Below are positions 13,430 through 29,635 of a stretch of DNA of 64,000 nucleotides, piece after piece (the stretch's first letter is position 1; each line of letters starts with the position of its first letter). The notes beneath the pieces are model-generated. The model had not been told where the DNA came from and made no database searches. It was given only the letters and a program-made list of their open reading frames with translations. The stretch lies in NCBI RefSeq assembly GCF_003018115.1, contig NZ_CP027457.1. One strand, given 5' to 3'. The stretch is from Escherichia coli. GTDB taxonomy: Bacteria; Pseudomonadota; Gammaproteobacteria; Enterobacterales; Enterobacteriaceae. A program made the translations under genes and the position numbers.

Positions 13430-13585
13430 TGGAGGAATTATGAAACACTATCGGGAATCGTCTGAATGGCGGGCACATTTGCGAGCACGCATCCAGTAAT
13501 AACACAGGAAACTATTTTATCTACGCGTTAGCGATAGACTACATACAGGGCGAAAGGAGGTAAGCCGCAGATTTCAGCCGGATGC

Positions 13586-13729
13586 TGAAACGGGAAAGCC
13601 CCTCCCGAGGAAGGGGCCTTAAATAAGGAAAGGGTCATGATGAAGCTACTCATCATCGTGGTGCTCTTAGTGATTAGCTACCCAGCATACTAAGACTACC
13701 AGGGCGGGGGAAACCCCGCTCTACCCTCA
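13586..13729 (-). ncRNA. sibB: Sib antisense sRNA (antitoxin to ibs), copy 1; ends approximate
   Basis: Antisense to the ibs ORF; candidate -35 TTGACA (complement of 13759-13764) and -10 TACTTT (complement of 13736-13741); hairpin 13598-13620 followed by a T-rich run on the minus strand as terminator. Confidence 0.5.
13637..13693 (+). CDS. ibsB: Type I toxin Ibs (18 aa, MMKLLIIVVLLVISYPAY), IbsB-like
   Basis: 19-codon ORF encoding a hydrophobic peptide of the Ibs family; located between mdtA and yegL as ibsA/ibsB are in K-12. Confidence 0.75.
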   Translation: MMKLLIIVVLLVISYPAY

Positions 13730-13913
13730 CTCCTGAAAGTATGCCTTCACGATAAGATTGTCAATCCGCAGGCTTTGCCGTCTGCGATCCTGCCAGCAAA
13801 AATTCTTTGCGAGACGTTACGCAATAATCACACTGGAAACTATTTTATCTGCAAGTCAGCGATAGACTAAGTGCATGGCGAAAGGAGGTAAGCCGACGAT
13901 TTCAGCGGGACGC

Positions 13914-14057
13914 TGAAACGGGAAAGCCCCTCCCGAGGAAGGGGCCTTAAATAAGGAAAGGGTCATGATGAAGCTACTCATCATCGTGGTGCTCTTAGTC
14001 ATAAGCTTCCCCGCTTACTAAGACTACCAGGGCGGGGGAAACCCCGCTCTACCCTCA
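13914..14057 (-). ncRNA. Sib antisense sRNA, copy 2; ends approximate
   Basis: Same promoter/terminator arrangement as copy 1, shifted by one repeat unit. Confidence 0.45.
13965..14021 (+). CDS. ibsB: Type I toxin Ibs (MMKLLIIVVLLVISFPAY), IbsB-like, second copy
   Basis: Same 19-codon ORF, one residue different from copy 1; repeat unit 2. Confidence 0.75.
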   Translation: MMKLLIIVVLLVISFPAY

Positions 14058-14242
14058 CTCCTGAAAGTATGCCTTCACGATAAGATTGTCAATCCGCAGG
14101 CTTTGTAGTCTGCGATCCTGCCAGCAAATATTCTTTGCGAGTCGTTACGCAATAATCACAGAGGAAACTATTTTATTCACGCGTTAGCGATAGACTGCAT
14201 TCAGGGCGAAAGGAGGTAAGCCGATGATTTCAGCGGGACGCT

Positions 14243-14386
14243 GAAACGGGAAAGCCTCTCCCGGAGAAGAGGGCTTTTAATAAGGAAAGGGTTATGATGA
14301 AGCACGTCATCATACTGGTGATACTCTTAGTGATTAGCTTCCAGGCTTACTAAGAACACCAGGGGGAGGGGGAAACCTCTCCCTAA
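14243..14386 (-). ncRNA. sibA: Sib antisense sRNA, copy 3; ends approximate
   Basis: Antisense to the third ibs ORF; flanking hairpin gcctctcccggagaagagggc conserved in position. Confidence 0.4.
14294..14353 (+). CDS. ibsA: Type I toxin Ibs (19 aa, MMKHVIILVILLVISFQAY), IbsA-like
   Basis: 20-codon ORF in the third, more diverged repeat unit; nearest to yegL. Confidence 0.7.
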   Translation: MMKHVIILVILLVISFQAY

Positions 14387-14573
14387 CCCTCACTCCTGAA
14401 ATTATGTCACTCCGCCCTTAGTGTCAATCGACGGCTCTCCGTTCTTGCGAGGCGAATAGCAAAATTTTCTGCGCCGCCGGGCCTAATTCTGAAAGTTTCT
14501 TCGTTTGCTCTTATTTCATTATTGCAGTCGGTATGATACCGGACCTCGATAATTCTCTAAGAAAGGATTTCTT

Positions 14574-15233
14574 ATGAGCGAACAAATCACGTTTGCCACC
14601 AGCGATTTTGCCAGTAACCCGGAACCACGTTGCCCCTGCATTTTGCTGCTGGATGTTTCTGGTTCTATGAACGGTAGACCTATTAATGAACTTAACGCCG
14701 GATTGGTTACCTTTCGTGATGAACTGCTTGCTGATCCGCTGGCTTTAAAAAGAGTGGAACTCGGCATTGTGACGTTCGGCCCGGTGCATGTGGAACAACC
14801 CTTTACCAGCGCCGCTAATTTTTTTCCGCCCATCCTGTTTGCCCAGGGCGATACACCAATGGGTGCGGCCATTACCAAAGCCCTGGATATGGTAGAGGAG
14901 CGGAAACGTGAGTATCGTGCAAATGGTATTTCGTATTATCGCCCGTGGATTTTCCTGATTACCGATGGTGCACCAACCGATGAGTGGCAGGCTGCAGCCA
15001 ACAAAGTGTTTCGGGGGGAAGAAGATAAAAGGTTTGCTTTCTTTTCCATCGGTGTTCAGGGGGCGGATATGAAGACGCTGGCACAAATCAGCGTTCGTCA
15101 GCCTTTGCCTCTGCAAGGATTACAATTCCGTGAACTGTTTAGCTGGTTATCCAGTTCGCTGCGTTCGGTTTCCCGCTCCACGCCGGGAACGGAAGTTGTG
15201 CTGGAAGCGCCAAAAGGCTGGACGTCAGTGTGA
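14574..15233 (+). CDS. yegL: von Willebrand factor A (vWA, TerY-like) domain protein YegL
   Basis: 219 aa; vWA MIDAS-like segment [12 protein letters not shown]; first gene of a three-gene operon with overlapping stops/starts. Confidence 0.85.
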
Positions 15234-15991
15234 GCTGGCGTCTGGTTTATGCATCCGCTGTTGGAACGTCGCACATTAGCGCTGATTTACCTTGTCAGGA
15301 TGCCTGCCAGATGCAGGTTGCCTGGTTAAACGATCAGCAACCATTACTGGTGATGTTTCTTGCTGATGGTGCAGGCAGCGTCTCGCAGGGTGGCGAAGGC
15401 GCGATGCTCGCCGTCAATGAAGCGATGGCTTATATGTCGCAAAAAGTGCAGGGTGGGGAATTGGGGCTTAATGATATCCTCGCCACGGATATTGTGCTGA
15501 CTATTCGTCAGCGACTTTTTGCCGAGGCGGAAGCCAAAGAATTAGCAGTTCGCGATTTTGCCTGCACGTTTCTGGGATTGATTTCATCGGCTAATGGCAC
15601 CTTGATTATGCAGATTGGCGATGGCGGCGTGGTGGTGGATTTTGGTCACGGTCTGCAATTGCCGCTTACGCCGATGGTGGGTGAATATGCCAATATGACG
15701 CACTTCATTACCGATGAAGATGCCGTTTCCAGACTGGAAACTTTCACCAGCACTGAGCGTGTGCATAAAGTTGCAGCATTTACGGATGGTATCCAGCGAC
15801 TGGCGTTAAATATGCTGGATAATTCTCCTCATGTACCTTTCTTTACCCCGTTTTTCAATGGACTGGCGTCAGCAACGCAGGAACAACTCGATTTATTACC
15901 TGAATTGTTAAAGCAGTTTTTGTCCAGCCCGGCGGTAAACGAGCGTACGGATGATGATAAAACGTTGGCACTGGCGCTGTGGTTACCATGA
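15230..15991 (+). CDS. yegK: PP2C-family Ser/Thr protein phosphatase YegK (PphC)
   Basis: 253 aa; 4-nt overlap with yegL and 13-nt overlap with yegI. Confidence 0.8.
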
Positions 15992-17928
15992 AACCCACTT
16001 TATATACTGCTACTGGTGAGTGCGTTACGCCAGGCCGTGAACTGGGCAAAGGCGGTGAAGGCGCGGTTTATGATATCAATGAGTTTGTCGATAGCGTCGC
16101 CAAGATTTATCACACGCCGCCACCCGCCTTAAAACAGGACAAACTTGCCTTTATGGCTGCGACAGCTGACGCGCAATTGTTGAATTATGTCGCCTGGCCG
16201 CAGGCAACGCTTCACGGTGGACGAGGCGGAAAAGTTATCGGTTTTATGATGCCAAAAGTTTCTGGTAAAGAACCGATTCATATGATCTATAGCCCGGCAC
16301 ATCGTCGTCAACGTTACCCTCATTGTGCGTGGGATTTTCTACTCTATGTTGCGCGCAATATTGCTTCATCTTTTGCTACGGTTCACGAGCACGGGCACGT
16401 CGTGGGTGACGTAAACCAGAACAGTTTTATGGTAGGTCGCGACAGCAAAGTGGTACTGATTGATAGCGACTCCTTTCAGATTAACGCCAATGGCACACTG
16501 CATTTATGCGAAGTCGGCGTGTCGCATTTTACGCCGCCAGAGCTACAAACCTTGTCGTCATTTGTCGGCTTTGAACGCACAAAAAATCACGATAATTTTG
16601 GCCTTGCGTTGCTGATTTTTCACGTCTTGTTTGGTGGCCGGCATCCTTATTCTGGTGTGCCGCTTATCTCTGATGCGGGTAATGCGCTGGAGACGGATAT
16701 TACCCATTTCCGTTATGCCTACGCGTCAGATAATCAGCGACGTGGTTTAAAACCGCCGCCACGATCGATTCCGCTATCGATGTTACCGAGTGATGTTGAA
16801 GCCATGTTTCAGCAGGCATTCACGGAAAGTGGCGTGGCAACCGGGCGTCCGACGGCTAAAGCGTGGGTAGCGGCACTTGATTCTCTGCGCCAACAGTTAA
16901 AGAAATGTACCGTTTCGGCAATGCATGTTTATCCCGGTCATTTGGCTGACTGCCCATGGTGTGCGCTGGATAATCAAGGTGTTATCTATTTTATTGATCT
17001 CGGCGAAGAGGTCATTACCACCGGCGGGGATTTTGTGCTGGCAAAAGTCTGGGCGATGGTGATGGCGTCAGTAGCACCGCCAGCATTGCAACTGCCATTA
17101 CCCGATCATTTCCAACCGACTGGCAGGCCGCTTCCTTTAGGCCTGTTACGGCGCGAATACATCATTCTGCTTGAGATCGCACTGTCAGCATTATCGCTGC
17201 TGCTTTGCGGCCTTCAGGCAGAACCGCGTTATATTATTTTGGTTCCTGTGCTGGCGGCTATCTGGATTATTGGCAGTCTGACAAGCAAAGCGTACAAAGC
17301 AGAAGTTCAGCAACGCCGTGAGGCATTTAATCGTGCGAAAATGGACTATGACCATTTAGTCCGCCAGATCCAGCAGGTAGGCGGCCTGGAAGGTTTTATC
17401 GCCAAACGGACGATGCTCGAAAAAATGAAGGACGAAATTCTCGGGTTACCGGAAGAAGAGAAACGCGCTCTGGCAGCACTTCATGACACTGCAAGGGAAC
17501 GGCAGAAGCAGAAGTTTCTGGAGGGATTTTTTATTGATGTTGCCTCTATTCCCGGCGTTGGCCCTGCGCGTAAAGCGGCGTTACGGTCTTTTGGTATTGA
17601 AACAGCCGCAGATGTTACCCGTCGTGGCGTTAAGCAAGTGAAAGGGTTTGGCGACCATCTGACCCAGGCGGTTATCGACTGGAAAGCGAGTTGTGAACGC
17701 CGTTTTGTGTTCAGGCCGAATGAAGCGATAACGCCTGCAGACAGACAAGCGGTACTGACTAAAATGGCCGCCAAACGACATCGGCTGGAATCGACGTTGA
17801 CTGTCGGCGCGACAGAGTTGCAGCGATTCCGCCTTCAAGCTCCAGCACGGACCATGCCGTTGATGGAACCGTTACGTCAGGCAGCAGAAAAACTGGCCCA
17901 GGCGCAGGCAGATTTAAGCCGCTGCTGA
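15979..17928 (+). CDS. yegI: Ser/Thr protein kinase-like protein YegI
   Basis: 649 aa; N-terminal kinase-like region (GKGGEGAVY glycine loop, HGDVNQNSFMV catalytic-loop-like, DSDSFQ), central TM segment, C-terminal coiled region. Confidence 0.85.
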   Translation: MVTMKPTLYTATGECVTPGRELGKGGEGAVYDINEFVDSVAKIYHTPPPALKQDKLAFMAATADAQLLNYVAWPQATLHGGRGGKVIGFMMPKVSGKEPIHMIYSPAHRRQRYPHCAWDFLLYVARNIASSFATVHEHGHVVGDVNQNSFMVGRDSKVVLIDSDSFQINANGTLHLCEVGVSHFTPPELQTLSSFVGFERTKNHDNFGLALLIFHVLFGGRHPYSGVPLISDAGNALETDITHFRYAYASDNQRRGLKPPPRSIPLSMLPSDVEAMFQQAFTESGVATGRPTAKAWVAALDSLRQQLKKCTVSAMHVYPGHLADCPWCALDNQGVIYFIDLGEEVITTGGDFVLAKVWAMVMASVAPPALQLPLPDHFQPTGRPLPLGLLRREYIILLEIALSALSLLLCGLQAEPRYIILVPVLAAIWIIGSLTSKAYKAEVQQRREAFNRAKMDYDHLVRQIQQVGGLEGFIAKRTMLEKMKDEILGLPEEEKRALAALHDTARERQKQKFLEGFFIDVASIPGVGPARKAALRSFGIETAADVTRRGVKQVKGFGDHLTQAVIDWKASCERRFVFRPNEAITPADRQAVLTKMAAKRHRLESTLTVGATELQRFRLQAPARTMPLMEPLRQAAEKLAQAQADLSRC

Positions 17929-17939
17929 GCCATTTTCTT

Positions 17940-19292
17940 TTAACGAAATACCACTTCCGCCCAGCGAGCCAGCCCGGCGGTGACGGAGCCAAAGTCATCG
18001 CCGCCTGCAATCGGAATGCCCGGCAACTGTTCTGCCAGCGCTTTTTTAATCAGCGGAGAACGGGCGCTACCGCCGGTCAGGTAGATAACGTCCGGTTTTT
18101 CCTGGGCGTTATCCAGGGCCAGTTGCACCTGTTCCAGAATCCGCGCCAGTGGCTGGCTGAGGGCGCTTTCCAGCCCTTGCTGGCTAATCAGCGTAGCCAG
18201 TTCATCGCTGATAAACGGCAGTGAGGCGCGGGTTTCCGCAGTGCTGGAAAGAGCAATTTTGCTCTCTTCTGCGCTACGCACCAGGCGATAGCTTAAACGC
18301 TGACGCCAGACTTTCTGTAGCAGGGCCACTTTTTCCGGTTCGCGGGCATCGCGTACCAGATCGTTAAGCAGACGACCGTTGGCACTACTGTAGAAATCAC
18401 TCTGCGCAGGTACGTCGTTGATGGCAACCGCATTCCACCACGGCAGAATCGGCAGGGCGATGCCTTTTTCGGTTTCGCCACCCATGCCCAGTAACGGCAT
18501 CAGGTTTTTAAACGCCAGTGCGATGTCCAGATCGTTACCGCCAATACGGCAACCACTGTGACCCAGCAGGCTGGCTTCACGATCGAGACGCGAACGCCAC
18601 TGCGGCCCCATCAGCAGCAATGAACAGTCAGTCGTACCACCGCCGATATCCACCACCAGCACCCGTTTTTCTTCCTGCAAGGTGGCTTCGTAATCCAGCC
18701 CAGCCGCGACCGGCTCGTACTGGAATACCACGTCCCTGAATCCGGCACGCTTCGCCGCGCGTTCCAGAATCCCTTGCGCCTGGGCGTTTGCTTCATCGCC
18801 GCCCAGCCCCTGGAAGTTGATCGGGCGACCAATCACCGCCTGAGTAATCGCTTCTGGCAGCTGCGCCTGCGCCTGCTGGCGAATGTGCAACATCATTGCG
18901 CAGACCAGATCCTCAAACAGCGCTACCTGCTGCGGTTTTAAGCCGCTGGCACCGAGGAACGATTTTGGTGATTTCACAAACCACACTTCTTCTGGATCAT
19001 CAATGTACTGTGCCAGTGAGGAAAGACCGAACTGCACGCTTTTCGCCGTAACATCGATATCTTCTTCGCGGTTATAACGAATCGCCCGACGTAACAGCGC
19101 CTGCGTTTCATCGTCGTCTGCCGGAACATCATGATGGCGGTACAGCCATTCACTTACTGCTTCACGCGTTGGCGCGCAAAGCATTGAAGGCAGCAGCGTG
19201 CTGTCGTTTTCCATTTTCAGTAATTGCGGTTTACCGTCACGCATGACCGCCACTGAACAGTTTGCTGTACCGTAATCAAAACCAATAAACAC
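17940..19292 (-). CDS. yegD: Hsp70-like (actin-fold ATPase) protein YegD
   Basis: 450 aa; MFIGFDYGTANCSVAVM... sugar-kinase/Hsp70/actin fold; convergent with yegI. Confidence 0.9.
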   Translation of the reverse strand: MFIGFDYGTANCSVAVMRDGKPQLLKMENDSTLLPSMLCAPTREAVSEWLYRHHDVPADDDETQALLRRAIRYNREEDIDVTAKSVQFGLSSLAQYIDDPEEVWFVKSPKSFLGASGLKPQQVALFEDLVCAMMLHIRQQAQAQLPEAITQAVIGRPINFQGLGGDEANAQAQGILERAAKRAGFRDVVFQYEPVAAGLDYEATLQEEKRVLVVDIGGGTTDCSLLLMGPQWRSRLDREASLLGHSGCRIGGNDLDIALAFKNLMPLLGMGGETEKGIALPILPWWNAVAINDVPAQSDFYSSANGRLLNDLVRDAREPEKVALLQKVWRQRLSYRLVRSAEESKIALSSTAETRASLPFISDELATLISQQGLESALSQPLARILEQVQLALDNAQEKPDVIYLTGGSARSPLIKKALAEQLPGIPIAGGDDFGSVTAGLARWAEVVFR

Positions 19293-19365
19293 GAATTAAT
19301 CCCCATGCCGGTGAAGAAGGGGCGTGACTTTAGCGAAATGTTGCCGTCGCGACAACCGGAATATG

Positions 19366-19376
19366 AAAGCAAAGCG
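19366..19376 (+). promoter_or_regulatory. Candidate Ada box in the alkA promoter
   Basis: AAAGCAAAGCG about 50 nt upstream of the alkA ATG; resembles the remembered Ada site AAAGCAAA of alkA. Confidence 0.4.
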
Positions 19377-19425
19377 TAGCGTCTGAATAACGTTTATGCT
19401 GAAAGCGGATGAATAAGGAGATGCG

Positions 19426-27198: not shown

Positions 27199-27489
27199 CT
27201 AAGCAGCATGTGGATATTGAATTTCAATACGTTGAATATGTAGTCCTGCATGAGCCATCATGGTGATCAATTTATCGATACTAAAGATCTGGATCTTACC
27301 TCTGGCAAGTTCAGATATGCGAGGTTGAGTGACCCCTAAAGCAGAAGCTGCCTGAGCCTGGCTAAACCCTTGTTGTTCAATCCAGTTATTAATGATCGTT
27401 ACAAGCTCGGCACGGATCCGCATATTTTCCGCTTGTTCAGGGGTGTCACTCACCGCATCCCACACACTATCAAAGGTTTCAATTTTCAT
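27199..27489 (-). CDS. HigA-like HTH (XRE-family) antitoxin
   Basis: About 96 aa; HTH segment FSQAQAASALGVTQPRISELARGK; located downstream of and overlapping the toxin gene (toxin-first order typical of HigBA). Confidence 0.65.
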   Translation of the reverse strand: MKIETFDSVWDAVSDTPEQAENMRIRAELVTIINNWIEQQGFSQAQAASALGVTQPRISELARGKIQIFSIDKLITMMAHAGLHIQRIEIQYPHAA

Positions 27490-27817
27490 TTTTCCGCTCC
27501 TGAACAAGTTCTTTATAGCGTCGTTTGGCTAAATCAATATCCGATTGACTGGTAGTCTGTGTTTTCTTTTGAAAACAATGCAATACGTAAACCGCTTCTT
27601 CAAATTTTGCGACATACATGACGCGATAGATCCCATCAGCATCGCGAGTACGAATCTCTCGCACACCAGGGCCGATAGTTGAAAAAGATTTCCAGTCGTA
27701 TGGGTTTAACCCTTGTTGGATCCTGTCGAGTTGATAGCCAATTTCCTGTCGAGACGATTCTGGAAATGCGCGTAAATCGTCAAGACTGGTATCAAGAAAA
27801 GCCAGCTTTTTTCTCAT
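27479..27817 (-). CDS. HigB-like (RelE/ParE superfamily, phage Gp49-like) toxin
   Basis: 112 aa; GVREIRTRDADGIYRVMYVAKFEEAVYVLHCFQKKTQ fits the Gp49/HigB-type toxin pattern; minus-strand TATAAT (complement of 27834-27839) and AAGGA lie just upstream. Confidence 0.65.
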   Translation of the reverse strand: MRKKLAFLDTSLDDLRAFPESSRQEIGYQLDRIQQGLNPYDWKSFSTIGPGVREIRTRDADGIYRVMYVAKFEEAVYVLHCFQKKTQTTSQSDIDLAKRRYKELVQERKNEN

Positions 27818-27891: not shown

Positions 27892-29474
27892 TCACACCTC
27901 GTACTCCATCTCGCCATCCTTACGTAGCGGAATAATCTGCACCTTCTGCACGCGATGGCTTTCCACCTGCAACGTTTTAAGCAGATAATCCCCCACCTGA
28001 ACTTCTTCGCCAGGTTTTGGAATACGCTGTAAATATTCCATCAACAGCCCGGCAATGGTGTGATATTCACGTTTTTCATCCAGCGGCAGCGGCACATATT
28101 GCACCAGATCCTCCAGCGGCATATGACCATTCGCCGTCCAGGAACCGTCCGCATTCTTCTGAATATCATGGCGGGCGTCGATCTCTTCCACTTCGTTCGG
28201 TAAGTTACCGGCAATGGTTTCAGTGACGTCACTTAATGTCACAATCCCTTCCACCGAGCCAAACTCATCCACCACAAAAGCAAAGTGCGTGCGGGCATTA
28301 CGGAACTGCTCCAGGGCAGGTAACAACGGCAAGGTTTCCGGGAACACCAGCGGCTGGCGAATCAACACCCGCAGGTTGAGCGGTTCGCCACGCAGTGACT
28401 GTTGTAGCAGGTCGATAACGTGAACAACACCGAGCAAATCTTCTGCGTCATCACCGTCGGTAACCACCAGCCGCGTATGCTGATTTCGCTCCAGCAACTG
28501 GCGGATCTCGTCTTCCGGCGCGTTGAGATCGATATGCTCAATATCGTGGCGCGACGTCATAATGCTGCTGACAGTACGCTGGTTAAGATTAAGTACCCGC
28601 TCAATCATCCGCCGTTCCTGCGGATTAAAGATCTGCTGGTTACCATGATCCACCAGCATGGACGCGGTTTCGGCGTCCAGTTCCGCATCTTCTTTTTGCC
28701 CGCTAAGCAGGCGCATTACCGCTTCGGTAGTCCGCTGGCGTAGCGTCTGGTTAGCGGAAAGAAAACGTCGCCGGTTAAAGATAGCCAACTGATTGAGCGC
28801 CTCGATCATCACCGAGAAACCAATGGCAGCGTACAGGTAGCCTTTCGGAATGACGAAGCCGAAACCTTCTGCCACCAGGCTAAAGCCAATCATCAACAGG
28901 AAGCTTAAGCAGAGAATAACGATGGTCGGGTGACTGTTAACAAATTGCGTTAACGGCTTGCTGGCCATCAACATCAGGCTGATAGCGATAACCACGGCGG
29001 CCATCATGACCAGTAAATGGTCGACCATCCCGACGGCGGTAATCACTGAGTCGAGTGAGAAGATGGCGTCCAGTACCACAATTTGTGTCACCACCCCCAG
29101 AACTTCGCACCTTTGCGTTGTGTGGGATTATTGCTGTCTTTCCCTTCCAGCCGTTCGTTCAGCTCCATCGTGGCTTTGAACAACAGGAAGAAACCACCAA
29201 ACAGCATGATTAAGTCGCGGGCGCTAAAGGTAAACGAGCGGAAGCTGAACAGCGGTTGCGTCAGGGTGACCAGCCAGGAGATTGACGCCAGCAGTAACAG
29301 GCGCATTAACATCGCCAGCAGCAGCCCGGTAACCCGTGCGCGGTCGCGCTGCTTCGGCGGTAGTTTTTCGGCGAGGATGGCAATAAAGACCAGGTTATCA
29401 ATGCCGAGGACCAGTTCGATCACAATCAGCGTGATTAACCCGGCCCAGATAGACGGATCGGCAATCCATTCCAT
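27892..29474 (-). pseudogene. yegH: yegH (TerC-family membrane protein with CBS/CorC domains), reading frame interrupted near 29088-29096
   Basis: Two adjacent track ORFs (29088..29540 N-terminal TerC part; 27892..29094 C-terminal part, GTG start) together cover one protein remembered as about 527 aa; frames differ by one nucleotide at ...AKFWGW* / (M)VTQIVVLD. Confidence 0.7.
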
Positions 29475-29635
29475 AGTAAGTACAAAACCTATTCGTTGTA
29501 TGACAAATGTCACAATTCGATCATGGATAAATCGGGGCAAAAATGCAATGTTGCAGCACTATTTATCTCATATTATTTGAGGGTAATAACCTCACATTAT
29601 CCCTGAATTAAAAGTGGTAATAATAAAACATTATT

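Follow-up and report, generated by a model that had tools for sequence, protein, structure and literature searches.

The TerY-P class, in which a TerY-type von Willebrand A (vWA) protein is found with a PP2C phosphatase and a Ser/Thr kinase, was originally proposed as a metal-sensing phosphorylation switch for tellurite or stress resistance (Anantharaman, Iyer and Aravind 2012, as related in later papers). TerY-P protects Escherichia coli against T7-like phages (Gao et al. 2020, as related in later papers), a Pseudomonas aeruginosa variant gives protection against Autographiviridae at high multiplicity of infection with survival of most infected cells (Costa et al. 2024), and in a later paper on CoCoNuT and TerY-P modules the kinases are said to have a zinc ribbon fused at their C-terminus. 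In the window considered here, a stretch of 64,000 nucleotides of E. coli (contig NZ_CP027457.1), three consecutive genes starting at position 14574 are almost certainly, in identity and architecture, the already named and annotated yegL-pphC-yegI operon of this species (yegLKI, the triad), a three-gene cassette of the TerY-P type.

The result is a correct re-identification of a known locus and not a discovery: the locus is real and had been correctly described in a first-pass annotation made from the sequence alone, it was already known and annotated, its enzymes are characterised, and the TerY-P class is known as well. Since the activities of YegI and PphC were published in 2018-2020, the locus is less obscure than that annotation implied. 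The triad includes the only pair of a Hanks-type kinase and a PP2C phosphatase in E. coli and is carried by almost every strain; its trigger, its substrate and its physiological role constitute a genuine, testable question, which will be no surprise to specialists.

The yegL-pphC-yegI locus as a TerY-P-type cassette

The genes and segments of the locus are the following (window coordinates).

14574-15233, + strand: yegL, 219 aa, TerY-type vWA protein
15230-15991, + strand: pphC (formerly yegK), 253 aa, PP2C-type Mn-dependent Ser/Thr phosphatase
15988-17928, + strand: yegI, 646 aa, inner-membrane Hanks-type Ser/Thr kinase
17940-19292, - strand: yegD, 450 aa, Hsp70/actin-fold ATPase that adjoins the triad, inside the coordinates first given for the finding and outside the system
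14398-17943, + strand: triad-bearing 3.5-kb segment, present or absent as a block in comparison with a triad-less E. coli lineage (blastn)
14428-14573, + strand: leader upstream of yegL and presumed promoter region, 146 nt from the last Sib RNA to the yegL start

About 2,300 enterobacterial plasmids gave matches to YegL in the three TerY paralogues of their tellurite-resistance clusters, and in one of these clusters, on pKP187, the order is TerW ... TerY, TerD-family, TerY, TerY with TerY-C, PP2C (577 aa) and kinase (499 aa). In BLASTP comparisons YegL is 37% identical to a ter-cluster TerY (E 4e-20) with the DxSxS and TDG motifs of the MIDAS metal site aligned, and YegI matches the ter-cluster kinase (E 3e-5) across the final subdomain of the kinase and the Cys cluster, where its CPWC is aligned to CPYC; PphC and the ter-cluster PP2C have a pairwise E of 3e-6 and are both Pfam PP2C_2 proteins. 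On the basis of this component-by-component homology to the pKP187 triad and of the same gene order, yegLKI belongs by sequence to the TerY-P architectural class, with every defining feature present: a TerY-type vWA protein with MIDAS, an adjoining PP2C, a kinase with a Cys cluster, and the order vWA-PP2C-kinase. The linkage to ter, DNA-processing or restriction genes, frequent in TerY-P and optional, is missing from the E. coli locus, and defence-type neighbours are present in a minority of loci elsewhere. The component-wise homology, including the zinc ribbon of the kinase, is new here, together with the observation that the validated defence models of PADLOC miss yegLKI; it bears out the TerY-like vWA/phosphatase/kinase architecture that the first-pass annotation had recognised.

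The cassette is widespread. An exhaustive HMMER scan gave 9,680 clusters of YegI relatives at 50% identity (3,251 at E<=1e-30), most of which are about 645 aa long and match from end to end. At least 550 species carry a YegI relative in a scan of one genome per species, and the hosts belong to all proteobacterial classes, Frankia, Georgenia, Paenibacillus, Clostridiales, Acidobacteria, Planctomycetes, Cyanobacteria and Synergistetes and, among the archaea, to Methanoregula. Where enough upstream sequence was available the vWA-PP2C-kinase order and strand are kept in 73 of 74 loci, with a YegL homologue (E 1e-81 to 1e-143) and a PphC homologue directly upstream of the kinase gene, and the sole exception is broken by an insertion; the juxtaposition of the three genes is therefore not due to chance. 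A conserved fourth gene or effector was sought by clustering 1,110 flanking ORFs (open reading frames) and rejected, since the recurrent families were generic paralogues (response regulators, histidine kinases, ABC ATPases) or reflected lineage-specific synteny, as for TetR directly downstream in Competibacteraceae, HrpA, and SNase in three betaproteobacteria. Because no fourth gene recurs and the order is so constant, the system consists of exactly three genes. This three-gene order across at least 550 species, archaea included, and the lack of a conserved fourth gene are also new here.

In the three betaproteobacteria the SNase gene lies directly upstream of the vWA gene (loci L001, 5932-6474; L008, 8155-8481; L018, 760-1376); its product matches Pfam SNase at 5e-22 and, weakly, the PADLOC model 'SNc+LTD', and may represent an effector added on in particular lineages. 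Degraded copies of the cassette were seen twice: in Escherichia sp. MOD1-EC7003 (L006, 8671-10620) yegI is split into two ORFs, a possible pseudogene, and in a Candidatus Methylophosphatis metagenome-assembled genome (L024, 10001-16966) about 5 kb interrupts the kinase gene, and the vWA gene is no longer in its usual place.

In hosts other than Escherichia the cassette appears to be mobile: it is found on 82 plasmids, 46 of them conjugative, with the full triad on pQBR103, and at unrelated sites in different genomes. In some hosts the site is a clear defence or mobile island. The neighbours in Piscinibacter include a Schlafen-type helicase, MazG-like, McrA-like, HIT, SNase, BrxR and JetB, and those in Chromobacterium include AbiH, a KAP NTPase and a Tn7-like transposon.

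In the window itself both junctions of the triad are 4-nt overlaps, GTGA between yegL and pphC and ATGA between pphC and yegI. The start of pphC is the GTG within GTGA, overlapping the yegL stop, while yegI begins with the ATG of ATGA, which overlaps the stop of pphC; in the mechanical ORF list yegI begins three codons upstream, at the GTG at 15979, and the ATGA start with the resulting length of 646 aa matches the published protein (Rajagopalan and Dworkin preprint). Given these overlaps, the triad genes are probably translationally coupled. The three overlapping genes of the first-pass annotation were thus found in place by the ORF list and by reading of the junctions, and the yegI TGA and the yegD TAA are separated, as that annotation had it, by exactly 11 nt (17929-17939). 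A Shine-Dalgarno-like motif, AAGGA, lies 8 nt 5' of the yegL ATG; no strong sigma-70 promoter was found upstream of yegL by consensus scan, and the promoter and terminator scans gave nothing exceeding the shuffled background. A 5.1-kb query (window 14300-19400) is 100% identical in DNA to E. coli strain SMBL, and RefSeq names the three products 'vWA domain-containing protein', 'protein-serine/threonine phosphatase PphC' and 'protein kinase YegI'.

Domains and conserved sites of the three proteins

The features of the proteins on which the comparison relies are listed below, all encoded on the + strand.

14652-14666 for D27, S29 and S31, together with T94 and D131: complete MIDAS metal site of YegL
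15150-15179: Ser-rich C-terminal tail of YegL, S193, S195, S200 and S202, near-invariant
15988-16887: kinase domain of YegI, approximately residues 1-300, with the G-rich loop G20-G25, K39, catalytic D141, D159-S-D161-S162 and P184-E185
16906-16962: zinc-ribbon-like cluster of YegI, C307-x5-H313-x8-C322-P-W-C325 (zinc binding predicted)
17152-17292: transmembrane hairpin of YegI, residues 389-409 and 413-435 (hydropathy, AlphaFold helices, PhoA-LacZ)
17293-17925: cytoplasmic C-terminal region of YegI, residues 436-646, with coiled-coil helices on both sides of a probable (HhH)2 unit
17533-17682: probable (HhH)2 (double helix-hairpin-helix) unit within this region, residues 516-565

YegL is recognised by Pfam VWA (E=7e-10), and both its MIDAS residues and its tail serines are kept in at least 97% of 73 family members. 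Across the relatives the tail follows the pattern W-L-S193-x-S195...S200-x-S202-x-P-G, and an 11-letter motif is also kept at the N-terminus; the Ser-rich tail is, judging by this pattern, a plausible candidate phosphoacceptor for YegI. PphC matches Pfam PP2C_2 (E=7e-51), and D24, D46, D131, D186, D242 and D243 are kept in at least 97% of 74 members. The enzyme is an Mn-dependent PP2C that is inactive as D46N and dephosphorylates autophosphorylated YegI in vitro, while the catalytically dead protein is itself phosphorylated by YegI in vitro and is the sole non-self protein so shown (Rajagopalan and Dworkin). PphC has therefore the conserved metal-binding Asp residues of the PPM/PP2C family together with the published Mn dependence and loss of activity in D46N.

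For YegI the kinase call had to be made at the level of the family, by Pfam, AlphaFold and Foldseek, because the E. coli protein alone gives no match to Pfam Pkinase at E<=0.01. Pkinase matches 42 of 49 relatives (best E 2e-13), the AlphaFold2 model built on the alignment of the relatives has a mean pLDDT of 91.3, and Foldseek relates it to PknA and PknB of Mycobacterium tuberculosis and to Aurora B with probability 1.0 and a target-normalised TM of 0.64-0.70. The direct sequence search of the PDB gave marginal matches (NleH1, E 0.04; TTK, E 0.3), and YegI is weakly similar to the kinase regions of LanL/LanKC and of the defence proteins MkoA and PD-T4-6. In the 49-sequence alignment of full-length relatives the invariant residues include G22-G23-E24, K39, D141, N143, D159, D161-S162 and P184-E185; the catalytic loop of YegI is VGDVNQNS, and in the family HRD is changed to (V/I)GD and DFG to DSD. 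YegI thus shows the bilobal fold, the ATP-binding K39, the catalytic D141 and the metal-binding D159 of a Hanks-type kinase. In the published work it is an active Ser/Thr kinase that prefers Mn2+ and is inactivated in the K39D, D141N and DSD mutants; it has VGDxxQxS instead of HRDxxxxN and DSD instead of DFG, with restoration of DFG abolishing activity, and it autophosphorylates S153, S160 and S162 in the activation loop with second-order kinetics (Rajagopalan and Dworkin). The first-pass term 'kinase-like' was right as to kinase identity and too cautious in its 'like', given an active kinase, dephosphorylated by an active PphC, published in 2018-2020. All four domain calls of that annotation were recovered by profile search, VWA, PP2C_2 and HSP70 directly and the kinase through the relatives and the structural model, so that neither the kinase nor the PP2C fold failed, the outcome that had been named as refuting it.

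After the kinase domain, C307, H313, C322 and C325, together with W324, are invariant in the 49 sequences. The membrane-spanning character noted in the first pass is confirmed by the two hydrophobic helices 389-409 and 413-435 (hydropathy above 1.5 over 19-residue windows), which agree with the published topology by PhoA-LacZ fusions, a two-pass inner-membrane protein with both termini cytoplasmic (Rajagopalan and Dworkin). The C-terminal region is modelled by AlphaFold as all-helical (pLDDT 93.5) and contains two conserved G-h-G hairpins, GVG523-525 and GFG553-555. Pfam HHH_5 matches it in E. coli YegI at E 9e-4, below the gathering score, and in 11 of 49 relatives at E<=0.01, and NCBI and JGI label YegI relatives 'helix-hairpin-helix'; Foldseek of a separate model of the region gave generic coiled-coil matches only (E>0.1), and no PDB sequence came below E 0.06 in a profile search. 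Residues 516-565 are regarded, with moderate support, as a probable (HhH)2 unit and a candidate for nucleic-acid binding. Among 50,697 phage records a single YegI match was found, in the unannotated human-gut phage contig MT836238.1 (6859-7860), and this relative has the kinase domain only (27% identity over residues 9-330, E 7e-18).

In five divergent E. coli lineages the triad genes have no internal stops, and the ratio of nonsynonymous to synonymous divergence (dN/dS) is 0.055 for yegL, 0.13 for pphC and 0.15 for yegI, in comparison with 0.03-0.19 for the neighbours; the triad is under purifying selection in E. coli, an observation that, with the near-invariant active-site residues, is new here. 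In the same lineages the synonymous divergence of pphC is about twice that of its neighbours (mean dS 0.24, against 0.10-0.12 for yegL, yegI and yegD), and in the comparison with K-12 dS is 0.006 for yegL and jumps to 0.20 for pphC. Such a pattern suggests allelic lineages of old origin, or else recombination with a breakpoint within the operon.

The cassette in E. coli and its relation to yegD

The triad is present in 5,423 of 5,426 complete E. coli genomes, always at the same site and with full-length coverage in 5403, and its neighbours there are ibs/sib, mdtABC, yegD and alkA, with no ter genes adjacent. The closest relatives outside Escherichia are 62% identical and lie at a different locus in Klebsiella, which is consistent with an old horizontal acquisition. 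A triad-less lineage is represented by the soil isolate MEI4BO-21, in which the order is mdtA - ibs - yegD - alkA: in blastn with the window the homology ends at 14397, in the last ibs/sib unit, and resumes at 17944, in yegD, with only 46 nt in place of 14398-17943 and the right edge of the indel at the yegD stop. The best explanation, given this comparison, would be that the triad entered beside yegD as a single 3.5-kb block and has since become fixed in Escherichia, although the direction of the indel may be insertion or deletion.

YegD is an Hsp70/actin-fold protein (Pfam HSP70, E=1e-24; NCBIfam NF008673 equivalog, E=2e-244), and the first-pass annotation had grouped its convergent gene with the triad. 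That yegD might be a fourth functional component, an Hsp70-like ATPase partner, is suggested by the two stops being 11 nt apart, for which the transcripts must overlap, and by a 2026 RNase E interactome paper in which overexpression of yegJ, a gene located inside the triad in K-12, up-regulates yegD. Co-occurrence speaks otherwise: among 85 loci a YegD orthologue stands beside the triad only in the two Escherichia loci L006 and L026, in about 80 loci from outside Escherichia none was found at up to 10 kb from the triad, and MEI4BO-21 has yegD without the triad. Since the right edge of the indel coincides with the yegD stop, the 11-nt spacing is the scar of the insertion or deletion of a block and no evidence of functional coupling. 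The partnership is effectively refuted and was rejected, with a residual probability that is close to negligible; the grouping of yegD with the triad does not hold outside Escherichia. The Escherichia-only linkage and the occurrence of yegD without the triad in one E. coli lineage, through the 3.5-kb indel, are new here.

Within E. coli the locus varies in one further respect, since a 725-bp insert of the K-12 type, bearing yegJ on the opposite strand (L087, 3193-3917), splits pphC from yegI in 1,934 of 5,426 complete genomes (about 36%), K-12 and others, and some copies of the insert are further interrupted by IS1. The present window lacks yegJ and has pphC and yegI coupled (15988-15991), which is the majority state. 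The disruption of the locus by yegJ or IS1 in part of the population, the transcription undetected in laboratory conditions and the possible yegI pseudogene in one Escherichia sp. genome would fit a silent, functionless relic of an old horizontal transfer that has become fixed. A relic is hard to reconcile with dN/dS values of 0.055-0.15, frames intact in five divergent lineages, intact catalytic residues, full-length coverage in 5403/5426 genomes and purified proteins that are active; this idea was rejected on account of dN/dS and of the intact motifs, and we consider it very improbable.

The region immediately 5' of yegL (13505-14430) is occupied by a tandem array of three ibs/sib type I toxin-antitoxin units, with Ibs toxin ORFs of 18-19 aa on the + strand and Sib antitoxin RNAs on the - strand at 13622-13764, 13950-14092 and 14279-14427 (Rfam, 142-150 bits). 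The number of copies varies with the strain: one in MEI4BO-21, two in K-12 and CFT073, three in the present window and in strain 123, and four in E. coli B. Farther downstream, between asmA and yegH (27199-27817, - strand), an overlapping gene pair of 112 and then 102 aa looks by eye like a RelE/HigB-type toxin with an XRE-family helix-turn-helix antitoxin, and in strain MEI4BO-21 no gene is annotated at this position. The adjacent yegH (TerC-family in RefSeq, about 527 aa) is apparently split (27892-29540, - strand) into ORFs of 150 aa (29088-29540) and 400 aa (27892-29094) that overlap by 7 nt, owing to a frameshift near 29090 or to a sequencing error. It is a curious coincidence to find a TerC-family gene some 8-10 kb away from a TerY-type triad, but the triad-less lineage has yegH too.

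Possible output and comparison with known systems

The steps of the switch established in the published work are the Mn-dependent autophosphorylation of YegI, its reversal by PphC and the anchoring in the membrane with a cytoplasmic C-terminus. Around these steps the favoured reading is a TerY-P phospho-switch with an anti-invader output, to which, as a whole package, we give about an even chance. In the resting cell PphC would hold YegI off and the operon would be barely transcribed. The most plausible trigger would be nucleic acid, for example incoming phage or other foreign DNA, bound at the inner membrane by the HhH region; an alternative or additional one could be a change in metal sensed by the MIDAS of YegL. 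The trigger would lead to dimerisation and autophosphorylation of YegI, and the active kinase would phosphorylate YegL, with S193, S195, S200 and S202 as candidates, and possibly other proteins. The outcome would be a protective response like that of other TerY-P triads against T7-like phages. As there is no conserved fourth gene, any effector should be sought within the triad or among host proteins.

A stronger form of this reading would see in the YegI-type triads a distinct and widespread subclass of TerY-P, in bacteria and archaea, in which the (HhH)2 unit of a membrane kinase detects DNA entering at the inner membrane and the kinase then phosphorylates the Ser-rich tail of YegL; the triad would be a stand-alone, non-abortive immune sensor, and the E. 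coli copy a silent, core-genome one missed by PADLOC. We offer this proposal as speculative, and doubt it in its full extent.

The tendency of the cassette towards defence islands is suggestive. Mrr, SNase, GajA, Schlafen/AlbA, WYL, HNH, AbiH or JetA domains occur in about 11% of the 139 nearest flanking ORFs (38 loci), an uncontrolled count, and the loci of Piscinibacter and Chromobacterium are clear instances. Several points weigh against an anti-invader output. The remaining nearest flanking ORFs are ordinary metabolic and regulatory genes, many loci being in housekeeping contexts. In E. coli the triad is a core locus (5423/5426) at a fixed site, unlike typical accessory defence systems, and both B and K-12, the classical hosts of the T-phages, carry it, so that its native expression does not block these phages. 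In published work transcription of the operon was undetected and the operon is almost silent under the conditions tested. In scans at E<=0.01 and at E<=10 the TerY-P models of PADLOC matched YegL at E=0.032 (11.7 bits) and PphC not at all, and for YegI they gave no match, the weak matches being to the unrelated kinase models MkoA and PD-T4-6. The validated TerY-P kinases end in an OB fold, YegI in a transmembrane hairpin and HhH; in confident models its C-terminus is predicted to be all-helical and lacks that fold. The HhH unit itself is moderately supported, YegL is a plausible, candidate substrate only, as judged from its tail, and no paper found in the searchable literature ties yegI or its clade to a phage phenotype.

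The relation to the validated P. aeruginosa variant was also considered. Neither of two metagenome scans nor a viral scan gave any match to its published sequencing primers, and the fetched triad loci gave none with up to 4 mismatches allowed; in a homologue search seeded by the YegI relative of Pseudomonas alcaligenes no P. aeruginosa protein was listed. By these sequence comparisons the variant is probably of a different clade from YegI. In view of this and of the failure of PADLOC to recognise the triad, no defence experiment transfers directly to the YegI clade. The stress or phage-defence module proposed in the first-pass annotation stands accordingly as a class, while defence is not established for this clade, whose E. 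coli locus is a fixed core one. On these grounds an anti-invader output, assigned by analogy, is the foremost of the possibilities and may be correct, at somewhat less than an even chance; endogenous stress signalling ranks after it, then a kinase toxin with its antidote, then a relic and, last, a partnership with yegD.

In the stress-signalling reading the triad would be a domesticated, endogenous stress switch responding to metal (Mn2+), DNA damage, an envelope cue or a stationary-phase cue and acting on housekeeping targets of growth or repair, with no role against phages. The core-genome status and fixed position in E. coli, purifying selection like that on the neighbouring housekeeping genes, and the housekeeping contexts of many loci in other species are what would be expected of such a switch, as is the preference of YegI and the requirement of PphC for Mn2+, in keeping with the metal-sensing role in tellurite and stress resistance originally proposed for TerY-P. 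Weak expression is reported only in stationary phase, and recurrent yegI mutations in long-term evolution experiments are mentioned by Rajagopalan et al. In a published screen overproduced YegL and YegI each raised endogenous DNA damage, a link to DNA that speaks for the anti-invader reading as well; the same screen also scored many membrane proteins, including the neighbours MdtA and MdtB, so that this phenotype may be non-specific. A patchy distribution, conjugative plasmids and frequent insertion at unrelated sites would be unusual for a housekeeping regulator, some loci are in clear defence islands, and the literature reports neither a stress phenotype nor a substrate. The searchable literature gives, in fact, no condition of robust transcription, no in vivo substrate and no phenotype for yegI, as is repeated in the 2026 RNase E interactome paper, and the first-pass statement that the physiological role in E. 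coli is not established is in agreement with it. A stress switch is possible, and in our estimate less likely than not.

The mutual action of YegI and PphC in vitro allows a third reading, growth arrest of the abortive-infection or persistence type, in which YegI would be harmful, PphC its antidote and YegL a tuning component, and in which fitness effects would come from leaky toxicity. The DNA damage caused by overproduced YegI and YegL, the breaking of the pphC-yegI coupling by yegJ in the K-12 lineage (36% of genomes), the yegI mutations reported as recurrent in evolution experiments and the weak similarity of YegI to the kinase regions of PD-T4-6 and MkoA could all be so explained. Against it, the P. 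aeruginosa TerY-P is protective at high multiplicity of infection with most cells surviving and is thus not abortive, the work on the purification of YegI reports no toxicity of its expression, and yegI is under purifying selection and not decaying; we hold this reading to be improbable.

The question of what triggers the triad, what it acts on and what it does is by now narrower: it concerns exactly three genes, yegD can be ignored, and archaeal and E. coli copies alike keep all the catalytic and metal sites. The cassette is transferred horizontally, at times into defence islands, is a true relative of the T7-blocking TerY-P and is left unflagged by defence-prediction tools. If the YegI clade should prove antiviral, an immune system could be annotated in thousands of genomes, with E. 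coli as an ideal mechanistic model; if not, the triad would be a conserved stress switch.

Among the known systems, the classical kinase-phosphatase pairs PknB-PstP, PrkC-PrpC and Stk1-Stp1 share with the triad the bilobal kinase fold (YegI being nearest to PknA/PknB), an adjoining PP2C that dephosphorylates the kinase and the required autophosphorylation of the activation loop. In contrast to them, YegI has no extracellular PASTA sensor, both its ends being cytoplasmic, and it has the VGDxxQxS loop, DSD for DFG and an obligatory vWA partner gene. The TerY-P modules associated with CoCoNuT (type II and III-A, McrBC-related) have the TerY-like vWA protein, the PP2C and a kinase with a C-terminal zinc ribbon, in the same position as the CHCC cluster of YegI, but are embedded in large McrBC/helicase/HEPN operons, whereas the YegI-type triads have no conserved partner genes and carry an extra membrane and HhH extension. 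The anti-phage TerY-P of Gao et al. (2020) and Costa et al. (2024) resemble yegLKI as stand-alone sets of vWA, PP2C and Ser/Thr kinase with no other gene required; they differ in their OB-fold kinases and in a demonstrated defence activity, which for yegLKI would be assigned by analogy only. The ter-cluster TerY-P of Klebsiella pKP187 is embedded among terW, terX and terD and has three TerY paralogues (one with TerY-C), a 577-aa phosphatase, much extended at its N-terminus, and a soluble kinase of 499 aa, while yegLKI has one vWA protein, a minimal 253-aa PP2C and a kinase extended by the transmembrane hairpin, the coiled coil and the probable (HhH)2; in both, the same three components follow in the same order, and the kinase domain is followed by a Cys-rich zinc ribbon.

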